Of a DNA stretch of 64,000 nt, positions 2,802 to 64,000 are shown one piece after another. This DNA is from Escherichia phage EcSzw_1. A program made the translations under genes and the position numbers. Location: sequence record MH791413.1; one strand, given 5' to 3'. How positions within the stretch are numbered: the first letter of the stretch is position 1; the number at the start of each line of letters is the position of its first letter. The notes under the pieces are model-generated. The model made no database searches. It was given only the letters and a program-made list of their open reading frames with translations, and was not told the origin of the DNA.

Positions 2802-5036
2802 TTAAACTCCACAACCTTCACAGTAAGCATCTTGAAGTGCTGACTTACCAACACCAATACGACTGTTAAGGTAGTACATAGTTTTCATACCAACTGAGTT
2901 AGCATAAATCATGTACTTCAAAGCTTGCTCTAATGATACCTTTTTCGATTTTGAATAGTCAACATAGAAATCTGAAGAGATAGCTTGACCAGTGAATTTT
3001 TGAACAATTGCATAGCAATCAATCATGTCAAAGGTGTCAATATCCCAAGCAATTTCATAGACATACTTCAATTCTTCGTAATCTGGAACGATGAACAGGA
3101 CGTTACCAGTAGCTGACTTCTTGGTTAAGATGAAGTCACGAATTGGGTACAATCCGTTTGTCGTATTAGTTGCCAGTGAAGAACTCTCGTTAGGCATGTA
3201 AGCCTCAAGTACAGAGTTTCTAATACCACTGTTTGCTTTAATACGGTCTGCTAAGTCATCCCAATCATAACGAAGTTTTGCATCGTGTTTTGTATCAATC
3301 TTCCTGTTAGCTGTCTTCGGAGGAACCCAACCTTCAGGATACTTGGTGAACTTCATATATTCAGGTACACCACGTTCTTTTGCAAGTCTTAATGAAGCCT
3401 CATGCAGATAGTAAGAGTGCATCTCTGCGAGTTCATGTAGCTTCGTTTTACCTGCTCTTGAAGAGTAGTTCACGTAGTTCTTCGCAAGGTAATGAGCCAC
3501 ATTCGTAAGACCAATCCCAACAGAACGACGTTTCTGAACGTGGTTACGCATTGACGGATACGGATAGTCCATAAGGTCAATAACGGAGTCAACCATTGCA
3601 AGAGCATAATAAGCAACGTCAGCGTATTCATCTTCTGTGATTCTCCCTGCTACCAGACTAGCCAAGAAGCAAAGAGCAACTTCACCATCTTCTTTAGGTG
3701 CTGTGTAACTGTAAAGGTCACGTTCATCTTCGAATCCGTGAACTGGCAATACAATTTCCATACACAAGTTAGACATTTTCAAAGGTTCTTTAAACGGCGT
3801 GTGAGTGTTAGCATTGTTCGTAAAGAACGGGTACACACGGCCTGTAGCATAACGTTGCTGGATGAACAGCTTGGCAACTTCACGAGCCTTAACACGTTTA
3901 TGCTTAACACCTGAATGAACTGCGTGACCAACTGCCATAGCAAACTCATCAGCAGATGCTGTGTAGAACATGTCATAAAGTTTTGGAGCGTCCTTGTAAG
4001 AGAACAGCAACCAATCTGTATCGTACTGCACACACTGCCAGAAATAGTCATTTGCACCAAATGAATAATCCATCTCATTAATACGCTTAGAAGGAACCGT
4101 TGTAGGGTGCTTCAAACGCAGTAAATCTTCAATCTGCGGGTCTATGGCAGTGTAGAAGTTGTTAGCTGAACCACCACGACTCTTCTGCTTATTGGCCTCT
4201 ACAGCAGCACGTACAAGCTTGTAATAAGGTAGTTTACCCATGTGTTCAATGGTGTTTTGACGAATACCATCACCAATTGTACGGGTCTCCATCAGCATAC
4301 CAATGCCAGCTTGCTTCGTGGTCATATCATAAGCTACCTTAGTAGCAATGCCAAGAGACTCAGCAGTATCATTAGCTTTGATTAAGCAGCATGACGCATA
4401 ACCTGACTTAGTAGCACGTAAACCATTCAGATAAGGCGTAGGAGCGTTAATCTTCAGGTCAGACAGGTAAGTGTACAGTTTGATAACATCTTCCAGTCTA
4501 CGGTGCTTAGGTTGTCTCTCAAAGGCTTTCATAGCCATACCCATAAACATAAATTGTGGAGACTCAAACAGACGACCTGACTTGATATCTCGGATACCGT
4601 ATTTGTCACGGAACTGTTTCAGTACTGCATAACCGTAAGAGATATCTTTTGAGTGAACAATGTGACCTTGTAAATAGTCAATCTCTTGTTCAGTGTAATC
4701 CATGTGTTCCCACAAACCCATCTGCTCCATTTTCATAACGAAGTTAAACAGTTGAGGAACTTTTGTGAAACCACCAAAGGCTTCTTTGTAGATGATGCCA
4801 AGAAGTAATCGACCAGCCATATCAGAGTATTCTTGAGTCTGCTTATCAATACAAACGTCAATCATAGCTTGGTGCATCTCTTTGGTAGAGCAACCTTCAT
4901 AGACACGCTTCATAGCTTCCATAGTTACTTCTGACCAAATGATTCCTCGTTTGTCAGCCCATGAAGCCCATTTGTTTAAACGTTCTGGTTCGAATGGTAC
5001 GATTGTACCGTCAGATTTGCGAATGGTCTTAATCAT
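2802..5036 (-). CDS. nrdA: Ribonucleotide reductase class Ia large subunit
   Basis: 744 aa; N-terminal ATP-cone (IRKSDGTIVPFEPERL), size and C-terminal Cys pair typical of NrdA. Confidence 0.85.
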   Translation of the reverse strand: MIKTIRKSDGTIVPFEPERLNKWASWADKRGIIWSEVTMEAMKRVYEGCSTKEMHQAMIDVCIDKQTQEYSDMAGRLLLGIIYKEAFGGFTKVPQLFNFVMKMEQMGLWEHMDYTEQEIDYLQGHIVHSKDISYGYAVLKQFRDKYGIRDIKSGRLFESPQFMFMGMAMKAFERQPKHRRLEDVIKLYTYLSDLKINAPTPYLNGLRATKSGYASCCLIKANDTAESLGIATKVAYDMTTKQAGIGMLMETRTIGDGIRQNTIEHMGKLPYYKLVRAAVEANKQKSRGGSANNFYTAIDPQIEDLLRLKHPTTVPSKRINEMDYSFGANDYFWQCVQYDTDWLLFSYKDAPKLYDMFYTASADEFAMAVGHAVHSGVKHKRVKAREVAKLFIQQRYATGRVYPFFTNNANTHTPFKEPLKMSNLCMEIVLPVHGFEDERDLYSYTAPKEDGEVALCFLASLVAGRITEDEYADVAYYALAMVDSVIDLMDYPYPSMRNHVQKRRSVGIGLTNVAHYLAKNYVNYSSRAGKTKLHELAEMHSYYLHEASLRLAKERGVPEYMKFTKYPEGWVPPKTANRKIDTKHDAKLRYDWDDLADRIKANSGIRNSVLEAYMPNESSSLATNTTNGLYPIRDFILTKKSATGNVLFIVPDYEELKYVYEIAWDIDTFDMIDCYAIVQKFTGQAISSDFYVDYSKSKKVSLEQALKYMIYANSVGMKTMYYLNSRIGVGKSALQDAYCEGCGV

Positions 5037-14316: not shown

Positions 14317-14492
14317 AATGCCCTCTTTTAAGTACCTATTAAACTTAATCTGTTTTCTTTACGTATTCTATACGTATAACTTTAAAGCTTCTTAAAAGCT
14401 ATTAAAAATCTTTTAAGGGTTTTAAAGAAACTGTATAGTTAATCTGTAAAGGGAGTCTTTTAAGTTAAAACCCACTTCGCAAAGATTAACAC

Positions 14493-14536
14493 CTTGTCAA
14501 GTGAATTGTCAACTTGCTTTTTGAAACTTTTTGCAG
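14493..14536 (+). promoter_or_regulatory. Conserved TTGTCAAGT-N3-TTGTCAAC motif upstream of DNA polymerase gene
   Basis: cTTGTCAAGTgaaTTGTCAACttgctttttg; near-identical copy at 55294-55325. Confidence 0.45.
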
Positions 14537-14573
14537 TAATGTATTGAGTCAATGATTTTGAGAGGGAGTAAAA

Positions 14574-17971: not shown

Positions 17972-18159
17972 GTAAAGAAGATAAATTCAAGAATGCTGTA
18001 AGAACTGAAGATGGAAAAGTTGAGTCTTTCACTCTTAAAGTTGGTGGCAAACCATTCCATTGCCGTTGTGGAGCAAACTGTTTCCATAAACCTAACAAAG
18101 ATGATTTAGAACTTTACACATGTAACTCATGTGACACTTGGTATCATTCTGGAGATTGA
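17968..18159 (+). CDS. Small Cys-rich (zinc-ribbon-like) protein
   Basis: 63 aa with CRCG...C...CNSC. Confidence 0.45.
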   Translation: MSKEDKFKNAVRTEDGKVESFTLKVGGKPFHCRCGANCFHKPNKDDLELYTCNSCDTWYHSGD

Positions 18160-18162
18160 GGA

Positions 18163-19262
18163 TGACAATTCTGTACAAACAAAACAAAGATGGCTCTTTT
18201 AACGTCTGGTCATGCGTTGCCGTAGGTGACAAAGTTGTTACCACGTATGGTAAAGAAAATGGCAAGATGATGTTTGAAGAGTACACAGCAGAACCGAAAA
18301 ACATCGGTAAAAAGAATGAGCGTAATGCTGAACAGCAAGCTCTCTTTGAAGTTGCTGCTAAGTATAAGAAGCAGGTTGACCGTAAAGGTTATGCTTACAC
18401 AAAATCTGAAGCAGAGAACACTGAAAAGGTTGGTGTACAACTCGCACAAGATGCTGCAAAGGTAAGTCATGCAAAGTATTTGAAGTTCCCTGCTGATGCT
18501 CAACCTAAGCTTGATGGTGTTCGTTGCCGTATATCAAGAGACACGGACTCAGTGAACTTCACAGCTTATTCCCGTGAAAATACTGTGTACAACGTACCTG
18601 AAGAGTTGATTCCAGACTTGCTGCTGATGATTAAATGCCACCCACAAGTTCAAGATTTTGATGGTGAAATCTATGCTCACGGATGGGATTTAGAAGATAT
18701 TGTATCTATGATTAAGAATGCTGACAATCCAGACCGTCACCTACTTAAATTCTACTGGTATGATATCTGCGACAAAACTAAAACTTGGCCTGAGCGTCGT
18801 GAAATCATTGATAACTCGCCAATTGTTGAACTCGGTGATGCTTGCAGGGTTGTACCTGTTCAAACTATCCGTGTTAACTCTTGGGAAGAGTTTGACAAAG
18901 CCCATGATAATTGGGTTAAGCTGAAGTTTGAAGGGGCAATGTACCGTTCCATCTCAGCAGATTCTTTCTATGAGTGTGGTCACCGTTCATACTTCCTGAT
19001 TAAGCATAAGAAGATGCACACGGAAGAATTTAAAGTAACTGGTGTGAAAACTGATAAGCGTGGTCATGGTAAATTCGTTGTAGAGACACTCCCTAACGTC
19101 TTTGTGGATGTTTCATGGAAAACTACCCATGAGAAGAAACAGTATCTTGCTGAACACCCTGAAGAGTTTATCGGGAAACCTTTGACGGTTCAGTTCCAGA
19201 AGATGACTCGTAAGGGGTCTTTGCAGTTCCCTGTTGGTCTCGTTATACGAGATTATGAATAA
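18163..19262 (+). CDS. ATP-dependent DNA ligase
   Basis: Adenylation motif KLDGVRC; about 366 aa; ATG 18163 with GGAGA SD. Confidence 0.8.
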
Positions 19263-19268
19263 AAGTTG

Positions 19269-19296
19269 TTGACATACACTCTCCGGTAGTTATACT
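19269..19296 (+). promoter_or_regulatory. Sigma70-like promoter bracketed by a 9-bp inverted repeat
   Basis: TTGACA (19269-19274), 16-nt spacer, TATACT (19291-19296); IR CCGGTAGTT (19283-19291) / AACTACCGG (19320-19328). Confidence 0.55.
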
Positions 19297-19346
19297 AGCA
19301 ATATAAAATTTGATATAGGAACTACCGGATGAGTTAGGAGAAGAAA

Positions 19347-19727
19347 ATGAAAAAGGTTATGGTAAGTGTCATTCTGGCAACTCTGAGTTTTGGTGCATCA
19401 GCTATGACGATGCCTGAAGCAGACTTTAGTAAGGTCTCTATAGAGGCTTGTCAGATTGTTCGTAAAGTCGTAACAGATGCTGGAGAGTTGACTAAACCGT
19501 TATCTTCTCCAACCGTCATGGAAATGTCTGACCGTATCACTGACTACAATTATCGTGTGATGGCAGATTACTACGAAGCTGTTTCTGATGCTATGGTCAC
19601 TCAAGACATTGACTTGCTTGATGACAAAGACATTGAGAAGGTTGAAGATACCAAACGTGGAATGATGGATGAAACTTTCAAAGGTGTTCATTATTTTGTT
19701 GAAAAGCGTACTTGTGTAGGTCTATGA
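19347..19727 (+). CDS. Secreted/periplasmic protein (signal peptide), hypothetical
   Basis: N-terminus MKKVMVSVILATLSFGASA; strong promoter-like site upstream. Confidence 0.55.
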   Translation: MKKVMVSVILATLSFGASAMTMPEADFSKVSIEACQIVRKVVTDAGELTKPLSSPTVMEMSDRITDYNYRVMADYYEAVSDAMVTQDIDLLDDKDIEKVEDTKRGMMDETFKGVHYFVEKRTCVGL

Positions 19728-19728
19728 T

Positions 19729-19932
19729 ATGAAGAAGAATCATTGCAAGAAGAACTATGGAGAAGTGCTTGACGACGAAGGTCATGTCATCTTCCGAGTT
19801 TACTGTGCAGATGACTCTGAAGTAGGTAAAGCACTTGATGACTATATCAATGGTACTCGTGAAAACGTCAGAGCAACAAACATAGATTCATTGATTGACA
19901 CTTCCAGAAAACGGAGGAAGAAGGATGAATGA
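19729..19932 (+). CDS. Hypothetical small protein
   Basis: 67-aa ORF. Confidence 0.4.
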   Translation: MKKNHCKKNYGEVLDDEGHVIFRVYCADDSEVGKALDDYINGTRENVRATNIDSLIDTSRKRRKKDE

Positions 19933-20224
19933 AGTCTTTGACCCTTACGCCCCACAAGATAAGTGGGAAGCTGATAGAGAGTATGAGATGGAAAGTTATA
20001 TCTGTCCAATGGATGTAGACGAAATGAGAGAGTTCGTTGCATTCCGTTTTGAAAAAGAAATTGAGAAAAGAAAACTTTCTCAGGCACAAGTTGCAAAAAT
20101 TTGTGATATCTCTCAAAGTCGTGTTTCCAACATTGTCAATGGTACTGGAAAGATTACCCTTGAATACATGTTGAAAGCTTGTGAAAAACTTGGTGTTAAC
20201 TTCAACTTAAGGCTGTCAGATTAA
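19925..20224 (+). CDS. HTH (XRE-like) transcriptional regulator
   Basis: LSQAQVAKICDISQSRVSNIVNG HTH pattern; ATG 19925 with GGAGGAAGAAGG SD. Confidence 0.55.
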   Translation: MNEVFDPYAPQDKWEADREYEMESYICPMDVDEMREFVAFRFEKEIEKRKLSQAQVAKICDISQSRVSNIVNGTGKITLEYMLKACEKLGVNFNLRLSD

Positions 20225-20225
20225 T

Positions 20226-20585
20226 ATGAAACGTGAAAATGCAATCATCAAAGGTAACTTCGCAATTGGCTTCTATGGTAAACCTACTGAAGCTGAAAAG
20301 GTGTGGGGTCATGAGATTCTTGAAGAGATGATTCCAAAACTCCAAAAAGGAGAAATTAAGCATTCTGAAAAGAATCGTGTGAAAGGCTATATGGCAATTG
20401 GTTCAGCTATATCCAACATCAAACTTGAGACGACATGTGCAAAAGATGTTCGTAACTCGTTTATCAAGGAACTCTTCAACAACCTTGATGGTGTAGATGC
20501 TACCGCTATCTGGCTTGATGTTGATGGTGCTAAGTATACAACTTTCGTATTTAAAAATGAGGATATCAAATGTCTCTTCCCGTAA
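20226..20585 (+). CDS. Hypothetical protein
   Basis: 119-aa ORF. Confidence 0.5.
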   Translation: MKRENAIIKGNFAIGFYGKPTEAEKVWGHEILEEMIPKLQKGEIKHSEKNRVKGYMAIGSAISNIKLETTCAKDVRNSFIKELFNNLDGVDATAIWLDVDGAKYTTFVFKNEDIKCLFP

Positions 20586-23304: not shown

Positions 23305-23330
23305 AAAAAGGCTCCTTTTTACGGGAGCCT
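23305..23330. terminator. Bidirectional terminator between convergent thyA and 23336..23710
   Basis: GGCTCC/GGAGCC stem; T-tract on minus side, weaker T-rich run on plus side. Confidence 0.65.
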
Positions 23331-23335
23331 TAAAC

Positions 23336-26410: not shown

Positions 26411-27559
26411 TTAAGCAGTTCTCTGCCATACATATAGAACAAATGATGGCTGTTCAATGTTAAATGCCTGACCAGAACCAGTTGAGCCAGTTGTACCAGA
26501 GTGGGAATGCTCACCTGCACCAGTAACCGTCACCGTAGCCGTATGTGAGTGACTACCAATAGCAACGGAGTGGCTGTGAGCACCAATACCAACTGTGTGG
26601 CTGTGAGCACCAATTGCTACAGTGTGAGTATGGTTGTTAGCAGTTGTCAGAGTGGCTCTTGGGTCATAGTCTGCACCAACTACTGAAAGTCCCGGCAAAC
26701 TACCGTTATCATAACCACGGTTAATCCACGTTGTCTGGGTGAATCCAGCAGAACTCGTAGTTTTATTACCATAATTGAATGATGATGTTGTCTTAGTACC
26801 ATAATCAAATGTGGTAGTTCCTTTAGTACCATAATCAAATGAACTAACTGAAGCAGTTGCACCGTGTGAGTGACCGCCACCAGTTACATACACTGAGTGG
26901 GTGTGTGCAGGAATATTATTAGCAGATAGTGAAGCAGTTTGAGAACCAAACGTTGAACCCGCTGGTCTGGATGTGCTATCAAAACCTACTAAAGCTCTAC
27001 CTCTGGATACTAACACCCAAGTACCACCACAAATTAGATATGTAGATGGGTTAGCAGCATTCATAGACAGATGGATAGTACCTACTGGATAAGAAGCCTG
27101 TACAGCCCTATACAAGCTGTTTACTGCCCTTGCTGTAGCATACTTATCAGCGTCTTCATTATATGCGTTGGAAGCTAACCAGTTCTGAACATTCCCCAAA
27201 CCAACTTGTGATTTAGTTGTATTGTGAGGGTTATTCTTGTCATTAATGTGGTTCTGGATAAGTTGATTAACTTCATCAGAAGACATAATCTGTAAGTTTG
27301 CTCTTGCTTCAGCTACGTCAACGATATCTGATAAGTTGTTTGCAGCGACAAGCTGTAAAGCATTTAACACGTTGCCTAGCTCAACCTGAACTTTTGTAAC
27401 ACCGTGAGGGTTATTCCTCAAGGATGCGTGAGGGTCAAGTAATTGTTCAAGTGTACATCTCTTATCCTCAATACCTTGTTTAAGGTGGAAGATATCACTT
27501 AACTCAATTGGTAACGACGCTTGAGGCAAGGCACTAATTTGAATTTCACCTACTGCCAT
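26411..27559 (-). CDS. Tail fiber protein 2 (paralogous tip, HxH repeats)
   Basis: 382 aa; FDYGTK tandem repeats and HTHT/HSHT motifs. Confidence 0.65.
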   Translation of the reverse strand: MAVGEIQISALPQASLPIELSDIFHLKQGIEDKRCTLEQLLDPHASLRNNPHGVTKVQVELGNVLNALQLVAANNLSDIVDVAEARANLQIMSSDEVNQLIQNHINDKNNPHNTTKSQVGLGNVQNWLASNAYNEDADKYATARAVNSLYRAVQASYPVGTIHLSMNAANPSTYLICGGTWVLVSRGRALVGFDSTSRPAGSTFGSQTASLSANNIPAHTHSVYVTGGGHSHGATASVSSFDYGTKGTTTFDYGTKTTSSFNYGNKTTSSAGFTQTTWINRGYDNGSLPGLSVVGADYDPRATLTTANNHTHTVAIGAHSHTVGIGAHSHSVAIGSHSHTATVTVTGAGEHSHSGTTGSTGSGQAFNIEQPSFVLYVWQRTA

Positions 27560-41219: not shown

Positions 41220-41597
41220 TTACAGGCCAGTTGGTACGAAATCAATGCCTTTTGCTTTCAGAGCCGCCTTAACTGCGTCGGCATCAACATCTTCAGCCAG
41301 AGTTAAGAGGTCTTTCAGTTCAGCATCACGGTAGATACCAACAACTTTCAACTGACCGTGGTAAGACAGTTGCAGGTCTGCGTAGAAGTTAACGATGCAA
41401 ACAGAATCAGCCTGAGCTTCTTCACCAGTTGCAACTTTGGTTCCATCGGCTTTCAGAACTTCACCTACACGGTATTCTGTAGCAGCGACTGGAGCGTACT
41501 CTTTACGAGAGTGACCTGTTGGTGTAATCTGTTCCCAAAGAATGATATCATTCAGTGGTTCTCTGTTACCTAAGTGAGTAAAACCTTCATATGCCAT
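41220..41597 (-). CDS. Head decoration protein, putative
   Basis: 125 aa between protease and capsid genes. Confidence 0.4.
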   Translation of the reverse strand: MAYEGFTHLGNREPLNDIILWEQITPTGHSRKEYAPVAATEYRVGEVLKADGTKVATGEEAQADSVCIVNFYADLQLSYHGQLKVVGIYRDAELKDLLTLAEDVDADAVKAALKAKGIDFVPTGL

Positions 41598-41609
41598 TAT
41601 TTGTGTTCC

Positions 41610-42953
41610 TTATTTGATAAGAGATTTCAAAGCATTCTGGAGAGCCAGTTTGCGTTGTTCTGCGGTGTCATCAGATGCGTTTTCAGAAGGTTTTTCTTCG
41701 TCAACCAGTTCTGCTTCACCGTCATTACCCATTTCTTCCATTGCGTTAGAGTGTTCCAGAACAGCACCAGCAGTTTCTTTAAGCTTAGTGATTTCGGAAT
41801 CTTTCTCTGACAGTGCAGAAGCATGAGCCGCGATAGTTTCATTTAGTTTCTGGTTAGCACCTTCCATAGCATTCATAAAGAGAACACTCAGAGGGTTGTC
41901 AAGACCAGCGCCTAAGATAGCCTGAGCAGCTTCTGTTGCGTCAAACCCGAAAGCTTCAGCAGAAGCAGAAATCTTACCAGTCAGTTCAGACATAGTTTTT
42001 TCCTGTTCTTTTGCTTTCATCTGAGCAACCTGAGCGCGTAGAGCCTCTAGTTCTTGCTTTTCTTGTTCAGTCATTTCTTCACCTGAATTGTTAACGTTTA
42101 AACTTACAGGAGCTTCATCAGAACCTTGTAAGTAATTTAAGAAATCATCTTGAGACATGATTGAATTAATTAAACCAAGTTCAAGAGCTTCCTGAGCAGA
42201 ATAAACATTCGCCTCAGTATTCTTTACAGCTTCTTCAGAGATATTACGTGCATCAGCTACAAAACCTGTGAAGGTGTTATAGGTGTCATTAATTCTCTGT
42301 TGAAGTCTTGTTTTGCTTTCTTCTGAGAGTGCTTGGAATGGAGAACCTAAACCTTTAAATTCACCAGCTTTAATAACGTTAATTGTAACGCCATTCTTTT
42401 CAAATGCTTTAGTTAACTCTTGGTGAACCATAATTACACCGATTGAACCAACATCTGCATCTGGTGATGCAATTACTTCATCAGCAGAACATGCAAGTGC
42501 ATACGCAGCGGAACATGCGAACTCATCAACATATGCTACAATTTTCTTTTTGCCTCTGGAGGCTACGATGTGACGTGCTAATTCAAAACAACCTGAAGCT
42601 TCACCACCACCAGAATCAACGTGCAGTACAATTGTCTTAATAGATTCATCTGCTAAAGCTTCGTCGAAGCCTCTGCGCAAACCTTCATAAGAACTTAGAC
42701 CACCAGTACACATTGCATCCATAAAGGTCATACGATGTGTTAGGCCACCCATAATAGGGATAATAGCAATGTCGTCTTTAACTTTTAAAAGACTTCTTGC
42801 CTCACCTTTAGGTTTGTCGAAATTGACTGCTGCTTGAACTTCACCTAACAAGCGGTTATTTACATAAGTCGCTGCTGAGTGAGCTAGAGATTCAGTGGCT
42901 AGTAAAGGTTGGTTGAATAATCTATCAGCAAGTCTGAAGATATTTGAACTCAT
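41610..42953 (-). CDS. Prohead protease (S49/ClpP-like) with C-terminal scaffold-like region
   Basis: IVLHVDSGGGEASG motif; coiled-coil acidic C-terminus; ATG 42953 (ORF-track GTG 42962). Confidence 0.6.
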   Translation of the reverse strand: MSSNIFRLADRLFNQPLLATESLAHSAATYVNNRLLGEVQAAVNFDKPKGEARSLLKVKDDIAIIPIMGGLTHRMTFMDAMCTGGLSSYEGLRRGFDEALADESIKTIVLHVDSGGGEASGCFELARHIVASRGKKKIVAYVDEFACSAAYALACSADEVIASPDADVGSIGVIMVHQELTKAFEKNGVTINVIKAGEFKGLGSPFQALSEESKTRLQQRINDTYNTFTGFVADARNISEEAVKNTEANVYSAQEALELGLINSIMSQDDFLNYLQGSDEAPVSLNVNNSGEEMTEQEKQELEALRAQVAQMKAKEQEKTMSELTGKISASAEAFGFDATEAAQAILGAGLDNPLSVLFMNAMEGANQKLNETIAAHASALSEKDSEITKLKETAGAVLEHSNAMEEMGNDGEAELVDEEKPSENASDDTAEQRKLALQNALKSLIK

Positions 42954-42963
42954 TTTACTCACC

Positions 42964-43296
42964 CTATTTGTTTAAATCCACCGATACTGAAGCGATAACA
43001 TAGATACCTTCTTCAGCAAAGAATTGAGGGCTGCTAAGAGCACCTGTTGCCACGCATTTATCGTTGGCATCCCATAGGCTATAGTGTGAGACCGTTGCAG
43101 AAGCTGGTACAGTAATATTGACTGTATCTTCTGAGGCAATTAAGCCGTTGTTCGGTTCAGAGAAATAAATAGCCACTGGCTGAGTAACCTTATTTGCTGT
43201 AGGGTCTGCCGTTGGGTCTACATTGTGTAAAACAATAGTCGTTGGGGTTAGCGTGGCGAGGATTTTATTCTTACCATCAATAGTTAATGTTCCCAT
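42964..43296 (-). CDS. Hypothetical protein
   Basis: 110-aa ORF. Confidence 0.45.
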   Translation of the reverse strand: MGTLTIDGKNKILATLTPTTIVLHNVDPTADPTANKVTQPVAIYFSEPNNGLIASEDTVNITVPASATVSHYSLWDANDKCVATGALSSPQFFAEEGIYVIASVSVDLNK

Positions 43297-43796
43297 TAAT
43301 TGAACCTTACTTTCTGTTTAAGGACTGTTGAATGGTTACCAGATTCATCCACCACATTTACAATCATATCATATACTTTACCTTTGACAAGTACTTTGTA
43401 ATCATTTTGTGAAAAAATGTACTCAAGTCTGTTAGACTCTTTGTTTACTGTCATTGGAGATTGAAATGCTGTGTCAATGGTAATGAACGCAGCTTCAACG
43501 CTATTAACGTTTATACGTTTATTCTCACAGTTATATAACTTTACACCCAAAAGGCATGAACTGTCAAATGGAATTTTAACAATTTCGCTACAATTGTTTG
43601 AAATAAACGAATTTCCATTCATTGGAGCATCAAGTAACCTGCAAATAGTGAAAACGTTAGAGGTTCCACCATCACTTACATAACCTGAAAGGCTGACCCT
43701 TGAGCCAGCCTCTACAGATAACGTATCAGTAATAAACAGAACACCTCTATACGAATGCACTCGTGTAGCATTTGAAATAGAGATAACTTCAGCCAT
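43296..43796 (-). CDS. Hypothetical protein
   Basis: 166-aa ORF. Confidence 0.45.
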   Translation of the reverse strand: MAEVISISNATRVHSYRGVLFITDTLSVEAGSRVSLSGYVSDGGTSNVFTICRLLDAPMNGNSFISNNCSEIVKIPFDSSCLLGVKLYNCENKRINVNSVEAAFITIDTAFQSPMTVNKESNRLEYIFSQNDYKVLVKGKVYDMIVNVVDESGNHSTVLKQKVRFN

Positions 43797-47322: not shown

Positions 47323-47398
47323 TGGAGCGTCGAAAGGGAGTCGAACCCTCATAATCCTGTTTTGCAGACAGGTACATAGCCATTTCTGTCATCGACGC
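47323..47398 (-). tRNA. tRNA-Cys (GCA)
   Basis: Hand-folded cloverleaf: acceptor GCGTCGA/TCGACGC, anticodon loop CTGCAAA, T-loop TTCGACT, CCA encoded. Confidence 0.75.
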
Positions 47399-47405
47399 AT
47401 TAAAT

Positions 47406-47498
47406 TGGAGGAAGATACCAGACTTGAACTGGTACGCCGATTTCTCGGTTACTGACAGTTTAGCAAACTGTTCCCTTACCTTTTAGGGTTAATCTTCC
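47406..47498 (-). tRNA. tRNA-Ser (GCT), class II
   Basis: 93 nt; acceptor GGAAGAT/ATCTTCC; anticodon loop TTGCTAA; long variable arm. Confidence 0.75.
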
Positions 47499-47500
47499 AA

Positions 47501-48235
47501 TTATTTGTTCAAGGCATCCTTCATTTCTGGAGTTGCAATTGAATCAATCACGCCAGTTTTACAAGCATCATCAAACCAGTCTGGTAAGACACCTGCAAGG
47601 AAACCATTAATATTCGTTTTCAAGTAATCAGCAATTAACGCTGCTTCATCTGCAATCATCTGAGTGACCTCATTAGTGTATGCAGTAATCTTAGCAATGC
47701 CCTGATTAATCGCTGTAACGGCTTGTGAGGCTAAGGAAGAGATAGTGTCTAGTCCTTTGTCGATTGCGTCTTTTAAGTCGCTTAGAATGCCATTCACAGT
47801 GTCTATGGAGGTGTTAATCAAATCCATAGCTTGTTGACCGTACTCTGTAGCTACTCCCATGATTCCACTAAACGGTGTACAACCAACTTGTTCTCCTGCT
47901 GCACCCATAACGTTAGAGTAACCTTTAGCTACCTGCATACGTGATGAGAACTCATCTACAGAAGTCTGACCGTATTGAGTCAGTGTGTTAGTTGTCGTTG
48001 TAGTGCTTCCAAGGCTCGTTGAGAAGCTACTTAACAAGGCTGTAGTCAAACCAGCAGCAATAAGTTTATCTTTTACTGTAGGGTCTGATACCGAGCTAAT
48101 AGAGCTTACTAATGAAGTAGAAGCGGCAATTGTGCCACCAAGGATTGCTGCACCAGTAATAAGGGGGTTGGAAAACCCGTTACCGGATTTCAGGAGATTA
48201 AAAATCTCTTTACCTTGTTCTGTCATCTCTTTCAT
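47501..48235 (-). CDS. Hypothetical Ser/Thr/Ala-rich protein inside tRNA array
   Basis: 244-aa ORF. Confidence 0.5.
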   Translation of the reverse strand: MKEMTEQGKEIFNLLKSGNGFSNPLITGAAILGGTIAASTSLVSSISSVSDPTVKDKLIAAGLTTALLSSFSTSLGSTTTTTNTLTQYGQTSVDEFSSRMQVAKGYSNVMGAAGEQVGCTPFSGIMGVATEYGQQAMDLINTSIDTVNGILSDLKDAIDKGLDTISSLASQAVTAINQGIAKITAYTNEVTQMIADEAALIADYLKTNINGFLAGVLPDWFDDACKTGVIDSIATPEMKDALNK

Positions 48236-48252
48236 TAAGCACCTTTTGAAAT

Positions 48253-48329
48253 TGGCGGGTTAGTGGGATTTGAACCCTCTTCTCATGTTTTTCAGACACG
48301 CGCTTTAACCATATAAGCTACTTAACCCA
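48253..48329 (-). tRNA. tRNA-Phe (GAA)
   Basis: Anticodon loop CTGAAAA; T-loop TTCAAAT; 3' register uncertain by 1 nt. Confidence 0.65.
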
Positions 48330-48336
48330 TTAAATT

Positions 48337-48413
48337 TGGGGTGACCTACGGGAATCGAACCCGTATAGACCATGTTCACAGCATGGGTCATTATCCATTT
48401 ATGATAAGGCCAC
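48337..48413 (-). tRNA. tRNA-His (GTG)
   Basis: Anticodon stem-loop CCATG-CTGTGAA-CATGG; T-loop TTCGATT. Confidence 0.7.
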
Positions 48414-48444
48414 ATGTAAGGACTCTCGTAAGAACCCTTAGAAG

Positions 48445-48520
48445 TGGCAGCAGCGTAAGGATTTGAACCTTAATCTTTCAGCTTCAGAGGCTGGAGCATT
48501 GCCAGTTATGCTACACTGCT
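48445..48520 (-). tRNA. tRNA-Gln (CTG)
   Basis: D stem GCAT/ATGC; anticodon loop CTCTGAA; T arm TAAGG-TTCAAAT-CCTTA. Confidence 0.65.
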
Positions 48521-48527
48521 ATTAATT

Positions 48528-48606
48528 TGGTACTCCATATCGGATTCGAACCGATACATAACACAGATTTTAAGTCTGGCCTCTCTGCCAATTGGAGTAA
48601 TGGAGC
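48528..48606 (-). tRNA. tRNA with Leu anticodon TAA but short (7-nt) variable region
   Basis: 79 nt; anticodon CAGA-CTTAAAA-TCTG; D loop AATTGGCAGAG; A73; no long variable arm. Confidence 0.55.
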
Positions 48607-48608
48607 AT

Positions 48609-48685
48609 TGGCGGGGGATGTTGGAATTGAACCAACTTCTTCGATTTCAAAGACCGAGGTTTTAACCTTGTAAACTAATCCCCTT
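48609..48685 (-). tRNA. tRNA-Gln (TTG)
   Basis: Anticodon stem-loop TCGGT-CTTTGAA-ATCGA; T arm GTTGG-TTCAATT-CCAAC. Confidence 0.65.
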
Positions 48686-48692
48686 TAAATCT

Positions 48693-49250
48693 TTACTTTC
48701 TTAGTGGATGAATAAAGAATGCCAACATAATTCTTTCCCTTGAGAATGCTCTTTCTTCTGGGACAACACTTTTAAGTTTCCATCCAACATAAATTCTCCA
48801 GTAAAACTGTTTACCAAAGACTTTAATTGATGGGATAAAAGCGAATAATCCCCAAGCATTACTATTCCACATTAGGAGATAACCTGTCTGATTATCTTCA
48901 GGGTTAGAACTTACGTTGATATTACCTTTCCACTTAGTAACATCTTTTACATCTCTTCCCAATACATGGTAAGAGAAGTTATAAGCTTTGTTTCTCCAGA
49001 GCCATCCAACTCTCTGCATATAAACACCGAGCTTGCCAATCTTTCGAATCTTAGCCCACCGTTCAACGTGACCTTTGTCACCGTCAATCGGGTTGTCATA
49101 AGTCTCCATCCATCTGAATCCAAAAGGCAAGTGACCTTTCTTCTCACTGTAGAATGGAACTACAAAGGGTGCTAAGATTACTGCTAAGATTGCTGCAAAT
49201 GGCTCTAGCAAAGCTAGGAAAATCCATGAAGCATACTTCAAATATCTCAT
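48693..49250 (-). CDS. Membrane protein, hypothetical, inside tRNA array
   Basis: 185 aa with N-terminal hydrophobic helices. Confidence 0.5.
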   Translation of the reverse strand: MRYLKYASWIFLALLEPFAAILAVILAPFVVPFYSEKKGHLPFGFRWMETYDNPIDGDKGHVERWAKIRKIGKLGVYMQRVGWLWRNKAYNFSYHVLGRDVKDVTKWKGNINVSSNPEDNQTGYLLMWNSNAWGLFAFIPSIKVFGKQFYWRIYVGWKLKSVVPEERAFSRERIMLAFFIHPLRK

Positions 49251-49269
49251 TTAAATAGCCTCTTTAAAT

Positions 49270-49346
49270 TGGTGCAGAATAAGGGATTCGAACCCCTAAC
49301 AAACAACTTCGTAGGTTGCTGCTCTATCCATTTGAACTAATTCTGC
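49270..49346 (-). tRNA. tRNA-Arg (ACG)
   Basis: Acceptor GCAGAAT/ATTCTGC; anticodon loop CTACGAA; T-loop TTCGAAT. Confidence 0.7.
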
Positions 49347-49508
49347 AATGTTCTTTTGAGATTCCTGTCTAGCTCTCTTCTTATCTCTTCTGAGAAAGCG
49401 TCTACGATGGTCTGTACGCCACTTGTAGTAATCTTCTTCACCATCGTGAGAAGCACAGCAACCACAACTTGCAATTTCAACTTTACCGTGTCTACCATAA
49501 GGCTTCAT
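49296..49508 (-). CDS. Small Cys-rich basic protein, questionable (3' end overlaps tRNA-Arg)
   Basis: 70 aa with AGGAGA SD before ATG 49508, but last 50 nt overlap tRNA 49270..49346. Confidence 0.3.
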   Translation of the reverse strand: MKPYGRHGKVEIASCGCCASHDGEEDYYKWRTDHRRRFLRRDKKRARQESQKNIAELVQMDRAATYEVVC

Positions 49509-49524
49509 AGGAATCTCCTAAAAT

Positions 49525-49602
49525 TGGTGTTCCAAGACGGATTCGAACCGTCACTAATACAAGGTTTGAGCTTGCATCCTCTGCCAATTGGGATACTGGA
49601 AC
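49525..49602 (-). tRNA. tRNA with Leu anticodon CAA but short variable region
   Basis: 78 nt; anticodon GCAAG-CTCAAAC-CTTGT; D loop AATTGGCAGAGG; A73. Confidence 0.55.
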
Positions 49603-49604
49603 AT

Positions 49605-49679
49605 TGGTACTCGCTGAAGGACTTGAACCTTCTTCACCAACTTGTAAGGATGGGGCTTTACCGTATAAACTAAGCGAGT
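49605..49679 (-). tRNA. tRNA-Val (TAC)
   Basis: Acceptor ACTCGCT/AGCGAGT; anticodon loop CTTACAA; T arm GAAGG-TTCAAGT-CCTTC. Confidence 0.65.
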
Positions 49680-49775
49680 ATGAAAAGAGGTCTGAAGTTG
49701 TGCCGCTAACTCAACTCCGTGGAATTTGTTACGGTCTTCAGTTGACTCAAGCGGTCTTTCACTCGACCTCTGAAT
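49680..49775 (-). ncRNA. Structured non-tRNA spacer element (candidate small stable RNA)
   Basis: 96-nt gap between two tRNAs; nested inverted repeats GAGGTC/GACCTC, TGAAG/CTTCA, CCGT/ACGG; no T-loop. Confidence 0.3.
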
Positions 49776-49852
49776 TGGTGCTGCTCACAGGAGTTGAACC
49801 TGCATCTCCATCCTTACAAGGGATGTGTAATAGCCAATTATACGAAAGCAGC
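49776..49852 (-). tRNA. tRNA-Thr (TGT)
   Basis: Anticodon stem-loop CATCC-CTTGTAA-GGATG; T-loop TTCAACT. Confidence 0.7.
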
Positions 49853-49858
49853 ATTATT

Positions 49859-49933
49859 TGGAGCATCCAGAGGGAATCGAACCCTCAACCTCAGTTTGGA
49901 AGACTGTAATTTTCCCGTTTAAACTATGGATGC
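49859..49933 (-). tRNA. tRNA-Gly (TCC)
   Basis: Acceptor GCATCCA/TGGATGC; anticodon loop CTTCCAA; T arm GAGGG-TTCGATT-CCCTC. Confidence 0.7.
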
Positions 49934-49939
49934 ACTAAT

Positions 49940-50015
49940 TGGTGGAGAAGCAGGGAATTGAACCCTGTACTTAAGTTTGCAAAACTTATGTTTTAACCAT
50001 GTAAACTACATCCCC
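49940..50015 (-). tRNA. tRNA-Ala (TGC)
   Basis: Anticodon stem-loop TAAGT-TTTGCAA-ACTTA; T arm CAGGG-TTCAATT-CCCTG. Confidence 0.7.
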
Positions 50016-50021
50016 GATATT

Positions 50022-50097
50022 TGGTACAGGTGGAGGGAATTGAACCCATCGTCTTACTGATTAAGAGTCAGCCGCATAACCATTTTGCTACACCTGC
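50022..50097 (-). tRNA. tRNA-Lys (CTT)
   Basis: Anticodon GCTGA-CTCTTAA-TCAGT; T stem weak (GGG/CCC plus two mismatches). Confidence 0.55.
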
Positions 50098-50104
50098 ATT
50101 AATT

Positions 50105-50181
50105 TGGTACACCTAGAGAGAGTCGAACTCACACTGAACAGATTCTAAGTCTGCTGCCTCTTCCAATTGGGCTATAGGTGC
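50105..50181 (-). tRNA. tRNA with Leu anticodon TAG but short variable region
   Basis: 77 nt; anticodon GCAGA-CTTAGAA-TCTGT; D loop AATTGGAAGAGG; A73. Confidence 0.55.
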
Positions 50182-50182
50182 A

Positions 50183-50635
50183 TTAAATCAAATGTCTTGA
50201 GAATTGACTATGACAATTTGGACACAAGAATCTTAAGTTTTCTTTTCTATCGTCTAACCAGTTTTCGTTGATATGGTCAACATCAAGTGTTAGTGGTTTA
50301 CCTAACCATTCTGGTTGCTGTCCACACTTAGAGCATTTGTATTCAACACCAGAAGCTATTAAAGCCCTTCTAAGTTGTGTTGACCTTGCTCTTTCACCTG
50401 ATTCACGAAGAATCAAGATTTCTTCAGGCTTTCTTTTTGGTAAAGTTTTAACCTTACCTGCCTTTTGTCCAAGGAAATGAGAAGTATCTAACTCAAACTT
50501 CTCTATAACACGTTTCAAGTGTGACTGAGAACCACCTGCTGGTTTTCTTCCAAGCTTGATAAGTACTTCTCTAAATGATACTGATTCTTTCACTAAAGGT
50601 TCAAGAACCTCTTTAGTCAAACTTCTACGTGTCAT
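50183..50635 (-). CDS. HNH homing-type endonuclease
   Basis: C-terminal LDVDHINENWLDDRKENLRFLCPNCH; inside tRNA array. Confidence 0.7.
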   Translation of the reverse strand: MTRRSLTKEVLEPLVKESVSFREVLIKLGRKPAGGSQSHLKRVIEKFELDTSHFLGQKAGKVKTLPKRKPEEILILRESGERARSTQLRRALIASGVEYKCSKCGQQPEWLGKPLTLDVDHINENWLDDRKENLRFLCPNCHSQFSRHLI

Positions 50636-50893
50636 GTGTCAATCTCCCATTAAATCTTTGTAGAGAACTGCTAAGACGCCAAAGCAACAATGGTATCAAA
50701 TGCCTTAACAATTCTCTAAAAAGACCTAACTGGTCTTTGCATAGTCTTGTTTAATCCGGTGACTAGAACCTTTGGAGAGCTTGATATTATCTCTTCTCCG
50801 TGACACCTACTAGGTGCTTTACTGTGCGTGTACGACAATACACGAGGGAAACCGAACGCAACGACGAAGTAGCGCAGGTCTTAAATCTCATTA

Positions 50894-50983
50894 GGCGGTA
50901 GATAAAGGAGTCGAACCCTCACCGTATCACTACAATGGCAACAGTTTTCAAGACTGTTTGGCTTCCATTAGCCGCTATCTACC
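50894..50983 (-). tRNA. tRNA-Ser (TGA), class II
   Basis: Acceptor GGTAGAT/ATCTACC; anticodon ACAGT-CTTGAAA-ACTGT; long variable arm; 3' CCA not encoded. Confidence 0.65.
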
Positions 50984-50996
50984 CCTAATAAGACTT

Positions 50997-51079
50997 TGGC
51001 ATGGGACGGAGGATTCGAACCCCTTTGAGTAAGTTTTGGAGGCTTACGCTCATGCCTTAGAGTCTTAACATCGTCCCAT
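50997..51079 (-). tRNA. tRNA-Trp (CCA), atypical extended D region
   Basis: Acceptor ATGGGAC/GTCCCAT; anticodon loop CTCCAAA as in E. coli tRNA-Trp; T-loop TTCGAAT; D region about 7 nt longer than canonical. Confidence 0.5.
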
Positions 51080-51221
51080 ACTACAATTCGAAGCTTACCG
51101 TATTATCACAACACTGTAAAGCCCCTTCTCAGATTTTTTACATGTTCTGGAAAACATGAGATACAGACCACCTCCATACAGGAAGACCCGCTAAGGTCGT
51201 CTAAGTAATCTGCTAACTATT

Positions 51222-51289
51222 TGGCAGTCAAGGTAGGAGTCGAACCTACTTACTATCGAAGGTAGCTAACCTTCAGTAACTTTCCGACT
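51222..51289 (-). ncRNA. Degenerate tRNA-like element lacking a D arm
   Basis: 68 nt; canonical T arm GTAGG-TTCGACT-CCTAC and CCA; hairpin GAAGG-TTAGCTA-CCTTC; no D arm. Confidence 0.35.
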
Positions 51290-51348
51290 TTCGTACACCT
51301 GCTAACATGTATTCAGATGGCTTACTAGTGTTGTCTTGACCATTAAAC

Positions 51349-51425
51349 TGGCACACCCTACAGGACTCGAACCTGTAACTCAGTGCTTAGAAGGCACTTG
51401 CTCTATCCAATTGAACTAAGGGTGC
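51349..51425 (-). tRNA. tRNA-Arg (TCT)
   Basis: D arm GTTC-AATTGGATA-GAGC; anticodon AGTGC-CTTCTAA-GCACT; T arm ACAGG-TTCGAGT-CCTGT. Confidence 0.75.
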
Positions 51426-51675
51426 ATTCTTATCTTTAAAGGCTCTCTTAGAAAACCCTTAAAGATGCCCACATTATTAATCATACCGTGGGCGAGTACG
51501 CCAAATTCTTTGATGAGGGGTTGGAAGACCTCACTGGTGTTTAGCCTATTAAGCTACTGCCAGAAAAACATTATCGTTTGCATTTATTTTAGTTTGCAAA
51601 AATAGACGCTACGCTAACGAAAACTAAGGTTACTATAAAGTGGTCACATCTGAATGTCAACAACTTTATCAAATT

Positions 51676-51750
51676 TGGTAGTGGTAGCAGGAATCGAACC
51701 TGCGATGTTCGGTTATCAGCCGAGTGTTATGACCGTCTTAACTATACCAC
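51676..51750 (-). tRNA. tRNA-Ile (GAT)
   Basis: Anticodon loop CTGATAA; T arm GCAGG-TTCGATT-CCTGC. Confidence 0.7.
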
Positions 51751-51753
51751 CAT

Positions 51754-51830
51754 TGGAGGTTCAGATGGGATTCGAACCCACATTCATAGGGCTTATGAAA
51801 CCCTTGCATTACCTTATCTGCGACTGAACC
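51754..51830 (-). tRNA. tRNA-Met (CAT); could be initiator, elongator or Ile2
   Basis: Acceptor GGTTCAG/CTGAACC; anticodon AGGGT-TTCATAA-GCCCT with three G:C pairs; T-loop TTCGAAT. Confidence 0.65.
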
Positions 51831-51909
51831 ATAATAAGTTGCCCTTTGGAGAAGAGCTATTGAGTGGGTGTTTCCAGCCGCGCAGGTGTTCTTCAGTTAA
51901 GGGCGAATT

Positions 51910-59935: not shown

Positions 59936-59967
59936 GCTTGACAGCAGTATACATGTTTTTATATGAT

Positions 59968-59995
59968 GGGGCTACTTAATGGTAGTCCCTTTTTC
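59968..59995 (+). terminator. Hairpin plus T-tract between genes, with promoter-like hexamers upstream
   Basis: GGGGCTAC-ttaatg-GTAGTCCC then TTTTT; preceded by TTGACA (59938) N18 TATGAT (59962). Confidence 0.45.
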
Positions 59996-60013
59996 ATATG
60001 CGAGGAAAGTAAA

Positions 60014-60706
60014 ATGAAAGTACAAAAAGGTGATGTAATAGCTATTCGCGTCCTTCATGGTCTAGCAACAAAACATGACACAGTTTATGCTGACGTAACA
60101 TTTGTATCAGGTAATGGAAGAGTATACTTCAAACCAAGAGCTAATATGCGTTTTCTTGTTGACCGTCGCGGAAAGGTTGAGAATGGAATCTACGCTGGTC
60201 AAGTGTACTCAACCGATGAGTTTGGCAAAGGCATATTCACAGGTGCTTGGCGAGGTATTTTAACACTTGGGCTATGTACAAGTATGAAATCTGAAGAAGC
60301 TGAAGAAGTATGTGAAGAAACCTTTGAAGCACCTGTCATTAATGCTGAAGACCTCCCTAAACATGACTATGGTGCAGCACGTTTCACAACTAAGGCAGAT
60401 GCTAATGGGGCAGCTTCAGTAGTTGTCGACAAAGCCCAAGACTTCTTCAAAGCTTTCTCTTCAAGTAACCAACATCATCACCACTTCAATCCTCAAACAA
60501 AACTTGATTCAGTGTTGACTAGTAAATGTGAAGATGCTAAGAAGTTGGCTAAAGAGGTTTATGAAGCTTCTTTTACAGCAAGTGAAGTGATTGAAGAGAA
60601 TCAGTTTGAAAAGGTCATTCGTACAATGATGAAAGCTGGTTTAACACCTCATCAGATTGCTGAAGAGATTCAACGTCAGTTCTACAACGCTATGGTGAAC
60701 GAATGA
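60014..60706 (+). CDS. Hypothetical protein
   Basis: ATG 60014 with GAGGAAAG SD (MKVQKGD...). Confidence 0.5.
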   Translation: MKVQKGDVIAIRVLHGLATKHDTVYADVTFVSGNGRVYFKPRANMRFLVDRRGKVENGIYAGQVYSTDEFGKGIFTGAWRGILTLGLCTSMKSEEAEEVCEETFEAPVINAEDLPKHDYGAARFTTKADANGAASVVVDKAQDFFKAFSSSNQHHHHFNPQTKLDSVLTSKCEDAKKLAKEVYEASFTASEVIEENQFEKVIRTMMKAGLTPHQIAEEIQRQFYNAMVNE

Positions 60707-63420: not shown

Positions 63421-64000
63421 TTTGGATTCACTCCGTTCATCTTGGGTCACCATATCATGTGATAAAATATCTACCCTTCTTAACAGCCTACTTAATCTTA
63501 CTCTCTATATATATATAGTTATATAGTACTATATAGTATCTTAGTCCCTTAACAGTGAGTCTCTATAGCCCTCTGTATAACCCTTCTATAAAGCCCTATA
63601 AGCATCCCTCTTCCAAACCTATACAATCACCTTAACCATCTCTTCATAGCCCCTTAGAAGCCCCTATACCCATCTTAATCTCTATGTCAGAGATAGTACC
63701 CTCTATAGGGTGTTCACTAGGTTCTACTAATCCTCTATATAGACTGTTTTAGATAACTAAACAGGTATCACCTTCTAGTTGATTCGGTTGTTCTTAAGAA
63801 TCAACCTCTTAGGCTTATCCTACAAGGTCTAACACGTTATTAACAAGGTATCTTATAAGCCTGTATTTACCTGTTTTATACAGAATACTATATAGATATT
63901 TATGCAATTCTTAAAATTTTTATAAAATAGAACTGTCAAGTCATTTTTTAGGGTCTTGAGAGCAACTCAAAAATATCTGTTTAGGATGTATATCTGCTTG
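63421..64000. repeat. Non-coding region rich in short CTATA/TATAG-containing repeats and inverted repeats
   Basis: No ORF; about 10 degenerate (A)GCCC(C)TATA-like units at 63500-63740; IRs TTGATTC/GAATCAA, GGCTTAT/ATAAGCC; flanking AATTTTTATAAAAT direct repeat. Confidence 0.5.

Follow-up and report, generated by a model that had tools for sequence, protein, structure and literature searches.

Compact cassettes in which a promoter and a stem-loop overlap have been described in the T4-like phages RB49/phi1, PST and nt-1 as promoter-early stem-loops (PeSLs; PMC2839356, PMC4122927), and the stem-loop of one of them cut the expression of a read-through reporter about as much as the rrnB T1 terminator (PMC2839356). 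A promoter placed inside an inhibitory RNA structure is likewise known from the leaders of T4 gene e (lysozyme) and I-TevI (reviewed in PMC3014915), where it lies in the DNA encoding the 5' strand of the hairpin and only long read-through RNAs fold. For Felix O1, the passage of transcription past its many terminators and its temporal regulation are stated to be not known (PMC3185647), and our literature search found no transcriptome of a Felix O1-like phage. The 64,000-nucleotide stretch of Escherichia phage EcSzw_1 analyzed here (MH791413.1; hereafter the window) holds, between its DNA ligase gene and an open reading frame of 126 amino acids, a gap of 84 bp that by analogy appears to share the PeSL layout and the logic of T4 gene e and I-TevI; no new class of mechanism is involved.

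This gap, the site of a promoter and an inverted repeat, is the largest without annotated gene in the plus-strand cluster that has the DNA polymerase gene (14574) at one end and thymidylate synthase (23296) at the other. Positions 18100-20300 of the window are 100% identical to 41480-43680 of Escherichia phage EcSzw-2 (MH791400.1; Ounavirinae, Suspvirus). Direct reading and scans gave the order TAA-AAGTTG-TTGACA-N16-TATACT, with hexamers at 19269-74 and 19291-96 that match the consensus at 11 of 12 positions; the initial annotation had ranked this promoter among the best of the window, and it does share the top rank with the matches at 59938 (+) and 51660 (-). The inverted repeat said to enclose the -10 element and start region is also present and perfect, but it counts 10 bp per arm and not the 9 bp described, with 28 nt separating the arms. 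As read from the sequence, the gap is a composite promoter/stem-loop cassette of 84 bp, composed of a stop codon, an A-rich block, a near-consensus predicted sigma70 promoter, an overlapping stem-loop, a Shine-Dalgarno (SD) sequence and an ATG. Its parts and the adjoining genes are as follows.

18162..19262, plus strand: DNA ligase gene, ATP-dependent (putative DNA ligase in MH791400.1; homologue matches PF01068)
19260-19262, plus strand: ligase stop codon TAA, 6 nt 5' of the -35 hexamer
19262..19268, plus strand: A-rich block AAAAGTTG upstream of the -35, largely conserved; block plus -35 read AAAGTTGTTGACAT
19269..19274, plus strand: -35 hexamer TTGACA, invariant in 15/15 distinct relatives aligned
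19282..19291, plus strand: left arm TCCGGTAGTT, covering spacer and first T of the -10 (-21 to -12 from the predicted start); extends to 19278 in the RNA fold
19291..19296, plus strand: -10 hexamer TATACT at the 5' end of the loop, invariant except for TATGCT in one metagenomic contig (L139)
19292..19319, plus strand: A/U-rich loop of 28 nt with the -10, the predicted start and the first 17 nt of the leader
19303, plus strand: predicted transcription start, an A, 7 nt past the -10 and inside the loop, placed from sigma70 geometry
19320..19329, plus strand: right arm AACTACCGGA, +18 to +27 of the leader; optional extension GAGT at 19331-19334
19336..19349, plus strand: SD AGGAG (19336-40) and ATG (19347) of the 126-aa gene, by direct reading; the hairpin base ends 2 nt earlier
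19347..19727, plus strand: gene of the 126-aa protein, with signal-peptide-like N-terminus (MKKVMVSVILATLSFGASA followed by M) and two invariant cysteines
19729..20224, plus strand: next two genes, for a 67-aa protein (PHROG 4473) and a 99-aa Cro/C1-type HTH protein (19925-20224)

Neither the promoter match nor the inverted repeat, taken alone, exceeds chance within the window: three matches of 11/12 were observed against 2.1 expected from first-order Markov simulations, and perfect inverted repeats (10 bp or longer, loop not above 40 nt) numbered two against about 3 expected. The proposed search for other copies of the repeat returned none elsewhere in the window, where the 9-mer of the arm is unique. 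The evidence that the feature is real is comparative, and lies in the conserved hexamers and the covariation of the stem in relatives.

Homologous sites were gathered from GenBank phages, IMG/VR contigs and metagenome assemblies; a search with a single protein led to 2 loci and an alignment-based search to 25, while scanning IMG/VR with the 14-mer AAAGTTGTTGACAT returned 120 unrelated contigs, the pattern being too unspecific. The 15 distinct sequences compared, drawn from Suspvirus, Mooglevirus and Felixounavirus, were essentially invariant in AAA-TTGTTGACA and TATACT, with variable spacer and leader, and positions A3-A5 and T7-T8-G9 of the A-rich block and -35 were invariant columns in two alignments of relatives. 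The layout with a stop codon in an A/T-rich stretch before the -35 recurred in the Mooglevirus and Felixounavirus copies, and the 3' part of the loop of the window, ATATAGGAAC, was common to the Mooglevirus versions. The stem, in contrast, occurred as five unrelated sequences in one register, in which the last base of the left arm is always the initial T of TATACT:

Suspvirus: TCCGGTAGTT/AACTACCGGA
Mordin-type Mooglevirus: CCTGACGGGT/ACCCGTCAGG
ESh21: TAGTGGGT/ACCCACTA
Sf13, 12 bp: AACATAGCAAGT/ACTTGCTATGTT
Felixounavirus: TTGGTGAGTA/TACTCACCAR

In a loop-free alignment anchored by hand on the right arm, which biases the paired percentage, 94.7% of the stem cells were paired as compared to at most 43% when the partner was slid; such anchoring, yet, cannot create five different complementary arm pairs. 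In the same alignment nine of the ten stem pairs had changed on both sides, and none of 500 shuffles reached the covariation score of the stem. An unanchored MAFFT alignment recovered the same stem register, but with the Suspvirus rows one column off. Intermediate states could also be followed: the outer pair of Mooglevirus passes stepwise from C:G (Mordin) through C.A (KMM4) to T:A (HP1), three consecutive compensated pairs distinguish ESh21 from Mordin, and one Felixounavirus pair is U-A in humlepung, U.G in most genomes and C-G in LNA1, a wobble path that fits a sense-strand RNA. The distance between the arms ranged from 24 to 31 nt across lineages. The expectation that the repeat is conserved was hence borne out for the pairing and not for the sequence, and the inverted repeat is, on this comparative evidence, under selection in just that manner. 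Mosaic joints were found at or near the cassette, with a Susp-like protein joined to a Moogle-type stem (L162/L163) and with a Felix-type upstream region (SUSP1/2).

The region between ligase gene and promoter differs in some of these relatives. The promoter of the window directly adjoins the ligase stop codon; Mooglevirus and many Felixounavirus genomes have, between the two, a small and very hydrophobic ORF of about 30-50 aa that is absent in the window (L007/L008/L159, ~1310-1460; L157, 721-813; L002, 2666-2812), and L162/L163 carry a different insert at this place.

In RNA, the stem of the window was predicted to reach 14 bp with one bulge, 19278-81 pairing with 19331-34, and it was part of the minimum-energy fold in all four stem types folded, with energies of -21.9 kcal/mol for the window (z = -4.6), -27.4 for Mordin, -16.6 for ESh21 and -15.8 for Meda. 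No Rfam match was found within 19000-19600 at E-values up to 1. Since the left arm lies upstream of the start predicted at ~19303, the promoter's own RNA would lack it, and its leader was predicted to be unstructured (z = +1.5); the repeat was proposed as a 5'-UTR hairpin, a role at odds with a left arm upstream of any usable start. The hairpin could fold only in RNA reading through from the ligase gene, because only such RNA holds both arms. The terminator scan reported no terminator-like site between ligase gene and promoter, and read-through is assumed for this reason; the distance from the ligase stop codon to the start of the hairpin would be 16-20 nt in the window and 18-21 nt in the other lineages. 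The same scan did not report the hairpin itself, which is followed by the tail TGAGTTAGG and by no conserved U-tract; the lack of a U-tract and the very large loop make classical intrinsic termination unlikely.

Toward the downstream gene, the base of the hairpin lies 2 nt from the SD in the window and Sf13, and 6-7 nt in Mordin and ESh21. The region from -25 to -14 relative to the AUG was predicted to be 9-33% unpaired in read-through RNA vs. 40-58% in promoter-started RNA. The unpaired probability of the SD in the window was 0.70 in read-through and 0.22 in promoter-started RNA, and predicted folding gave no consistent difference in SD or AUG accessibility between the two RNAs. In Felixounavirus the same promoter and hairpin are separated from the gene by several hundred nt and lack an SD in their vicinity, yet the stem is still kept.

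A boundary element acting on read-through RNA, through attenuation, processing or 3'-end protection, is the function that we tentatively assign to the hairpin, at a little less than an even chance. RNA started at the promoter of the cassette would begin within the loop, devoid of the left arm and with an open A/U-rich leader; RNA arriving from the DNA polymerase and ligase genes would carry both arms and fold a hairpin of 10-14 bp, which might attenuate transcription, serve as a processing site or leave the ligase message with an exonuclease-resistant 3' end. The downstream unit, comprising the secreted protein, the 67-aa protein and the HTH regulator, would then depend for its expression chiefly on its own promoter. 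The PeSLs offer a precedent with the same layout, in which a stem-loop cut read-through reporter expression (PMC2839356), and other promoter/stem-loop composites occur in the same genome; nevertheless, with a loop of 24-31 nt and no conserved U-tract the hairpin makes a poor intrinsic terminator, an element dedicated purely to the 3' end has no need to straddle a start site, and the stem type is single-copy in the genome, unlike the PeSLs. A more specialized function, quite unlikely in our estimate, is that of a dedicated discriminator of transcript origin, with the promoter start purposely set within a long-range stem, by which the fate of an RNA would depend on whether it started here or upstream, via stability or processing and not via SD sequestration. 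If true, such a discriminator would be a general design principle of gene timing in the Ounavirinae, and in Felixounavirus it would act on a non-coding RNA with arrays of ~11 NNGGU pentamers. We know of no phage sigma factor or RNA polymerase modifier in the Ounavirinae, nor, to our knowledge, has their temporal control been explained.

Transcript origin could instead gate translation, in the manner of T4 gene e and I-TevI, if the hairpin of read-through RNA closed the region beside the SD and only RNA from the proper promoter were well translated. The start inside the structure, as in those T4 leaders (PMC3014915), and a hairpin base 2-7 nt from the SD in four lineages, closing the region -25 to -14, are in line with this mechanism, which we nonetheless regard as rather unlikely: SD and AUG remain outside the stem, their predicted accessibility shows no consistent change, and Felixounavirus keeps promoter and hairpin without a nearby SD. 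Sequestration of the SD was rejected as a shared mechanism, given that the SD (from 19336) starts beyond the end of the stem (19334) and accessibility is not consistently lower in read-through RNA. Two further candidates were discarded: an RNase III site, as the second coaxial stem of 8 bp exists only in the Mordin type and the others total 8-14 bp, and a replication-origin unwinding element, as the A/T-rich loop is not conserved in Felixounavirus.

Readings in which the repeat works as DNA have to face the same comparative data. An operator, as initially suggested, would have a dimeric regulator, e.g., the HTH protein encoded two genes downstream, bind both arms and repress the promoter; the overlap of the repeat with the core promoter speaks for this, the unit itself encodes an HTH_3 protein as its only DNA-binding protein, and palindromes that co-evolve with their protein can mimic covariation. 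Yet the arms are perfect complements of 10-12 bp instead of degenerate half-sites, the phasing of half-sites is not kept because their spacing varies between 24 and 31 nt among lineages, a U.G wobble is accepted in the stem, and the HTH protein retains ISQ[S/A]RVSNI, its recognition helix being identical, in four of the five stem types (Sf13 not compared), which share no arm sequence. An operator is therefore highly improbable, and the variable spacing, the U.G pairs and the unchanged recognition helix favor a hairpin in sense-strand RNA over a protein-binding palindrome, as far as sequence comparison can tell. A cruciform that on extrusion would remove or lay bare the -10, or a conserved linker at which modules are recombined and shuffled, would likewise place the function in the DNA; a repeat enclosing the -10 and the predicted start, the mosaic joints at the cassette and the proposal of PeSLs as recombination linkers (PMC2839356, PMC4122927) speak for it. 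Extrusion around an unpaired center of 24-31 nt would be very costly, T.G mismatches are tolerated on one strand, and a linker requires sequence identity, yet no part of the cassette is less conserved than the stem, all of which leaves a DNA-level element very unlikely. As for a functionless coincidence of a promoter-like match with an inverted repeat, each feature alone is as frequent in the window as expected; still, the hexamers are essentially invariant, nine pairs covary over five stem types and the element occupies the intergenic gap directly 5' of an SD and ATG, so that the probability of this reading is negligible.

Compared with the PeSLs, the cassette shows the same order of parts in less than 100 bp (stop codon in an A/T-rich stretch, sigma70-consensus promoter, overlapping stem-loop, SD, ATG), G-T pairs are tolerated in the stems of both, PeSLs lie at the joints of swapped gene modules and the cassette at or near the mosaic breakpoints seen in L162/L163 and SUSP1/2, and in both the stem-loop can act only on RNA arriving from upstream. 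PeSL stems, on the other hand, are compact, often polyG/polyC, and sit between -35 and -10, over one of the two boxes or just before the start, whereas the loop of the cassette measures 24-31 nt and includes the -10 and the start, a position unlike the five published subclasses. PeSLs are moreover dispersed repeats with ~100 bp of conservation, in contrast to a stem type present once in its genome, and the present phage belongs to the Ounavirinae and not to the T4-like phages; attenuator activity is here a proposal only. The T4 gene e and I-TevI leaders share with the cassette a promoter located in the DNA encoding the 5' strand of the hairpin, and folding restricted to long read-through RNAs, but their stem includes SD and AUG and their internal promoter is late, while here the promoter is of sigma70 type and SD and AUG stay outside the stem with no consistent predicted change at the SD.

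The EcSzw phages offer further composites of this kind. A stem of at least 8 bp straddles the start at 5 of 56 promoter matches of at least 10/12, against 1.45 in shuffles; besides the cassette, such stems occur at 59938 and 54781 (-) of the window and at 16329 (-) and 15763 (-, the rIIA promoter) of MH791400.1. The first of them forms a second composite cassette.

59933-60017, plus strand: TAA (59933-35), TTGACA (59938-43), N18, TATGAT (59962-67), hairpin, TTTTT, SD, ATG (60015)

Its terminator hairpin (59968-89), GGGGCTAC/GTAGTCCC followed by TTTTT, stands directly 3' of TATGAT, and since the predicted start (~59974) falls inside the left arm, only RNA from upstream would be terminated. This overlapping terminator/promoter pair (59938-59994) resembles the ligase-proximal cassette in that a hairpin straddles the start of a restart promoter directly after a stop codon; the latter differs in lacking a U-tract and in its very large loop.

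At ~54700-54786 (-) of the window, TTGACA-N18-TAAAGT is accompanied by a stem of 9 bp, TGACAGGCT/AGTCTGTCA, which overlaps the -35 and follows the -10. Outside the window, MH791400.1 15700-15770 (-) holds the rIIA promoter-like TTGACA-N17-TAAAGT with its -10 in the 11-nt loop of GGTGCAGAG/CTCTGCATC, and MH791400.1 16260-16335 (-) holds TTGACA-N16-TATTAT before the next gene, directly followed by the terminator AAGAGGCTCC-TACG-GGAGCCTTTT. The 14-mer AAAGTTGTTGACAT occurs twice in the window, and its second copy (51625-51665, minus strand) precedes the promoter match at 51660 (-), with -10 TATAGT and 11/12 matches, directly after tRNA-Ile and without a comparable stem; 24 tRNA genes are clustered at 47323-53128 on the same strand.

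The early region (MH791400.1 720-7353, minus strand), also outside the window, carries an intergenic cassette, TTTACA-GGGGTTTATA...TATAAGCCCC-AGATAAAGAG...CCTAAACTGGAGATTCAAAATG, that is repeated at least five times, together with shortened copies. In these a hairpin of 10 bp, GGGGTTTATA..TATAAGCCCC, with one G.T pair fills the spacer and the -10, and CCTAAACTGGAGATTCAAAATG is a conserved SD block; by analogy the cassettes are PeSL-like. For Felix O1, the genome paper records their equivalent as direct repeats of 57 bp and nothing more (PMC3185647).

Promoters of Felix O1-like phages are recurrently fused to predicted covarying hairpins that can fold only in read-through RNA, which extends the PeSL idea beyond the T4-like phages. 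Mutation of the left arm and compensation in the right arm provide concrete targets for the study of transcription-unit insulation, and the practical value may lie in a better annotation of promoters and terminators and in a safer engineering of phages that are in wide therapeutic and diagnostic use.

The gene that follows the cassette was annotated as encoding a secreted protein, in agreement with the signal-peptide-like N-terminus of the 126-aa product. Its further designation as a candidate superinfection-exclusion or host-modulation factor found no support: the protein belongs to PHROG 4332, a family of unknown function, matched no Pfam family and gave a poor three-helix model in structure prediction (pLDDT 55). 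Homologue searches with it retrieved close relatives only, and it is confined to the Ounavirinae (258 phage records). Nor does its placing amid early genes agree with Felix O1, in which most genes of the 96-80 unit, the ligase gene (88) included, are maximal at 25 min by RT-PCR (PMC3185647, Table 3).

In Felixounavirus and some Susp/Moogle-like genomes, one to three modules absent from the window are inserted between the promoter (or terminator) and the gene of the 126-aa homologue (L134, 860-1075; L133, 700-1080; L010, 1150-1380; L002, 2880-3100; L166, 255-330). In each, NNGGT pentamers form an array between two hairpins, a short one (CCTTTTTAAAAGG or CATCACTTAAG..CTTAAGTGATG) before it and another (GGGTAGTTA..GCTAC) after it. 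The array keeps a strict period of 5 nt and a modal length of 11 units, with G at position 4 conserved at 98% and NN free; no ORF and no Rfam match was found in this region of the relatives, and the sole label on part of it, in one GenBank record, is 'repeat_region'. In its geometry the array is reminiscent of RNA sites wound around ring-shaped proteins (e.g., TRAP) or of successive two-tier G-quadruplexes. Upstream of the DNA polymerase gene, the divergent gap (14317-14573 of the window) shows no good sigma70 match and contains repeats like TCTTTTAAG / GGGTTTTAAAG (14409, 14456), which resemble the GGGTCTTTTAA preceding each pentamer array and may represent a phage-specific promoter or binding motif.

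Some other traits of the window were recorded. Its first position corresponds to 23381 of MH791400.1 and its tail (63500-64000) matches ~2856-3250, so that it is not collinear with the linear record near the terminus, for which a terminal repeat or a permuted assembly might be the reason. Between the convergent thymidylate synthase and holin genes (23308-23331) stands a bidirectional, terminator-like hairpin, AAGGCTCC..GGAGCCTT, flanked by T-runs on either side. Positions 26555-26842 hold two tandem repeats, with units of 27 and 30 nt present in 2.6-2.7 copies each, in a large minus-strand ORF that adjoins the tail-fibre gene (26411-27559).
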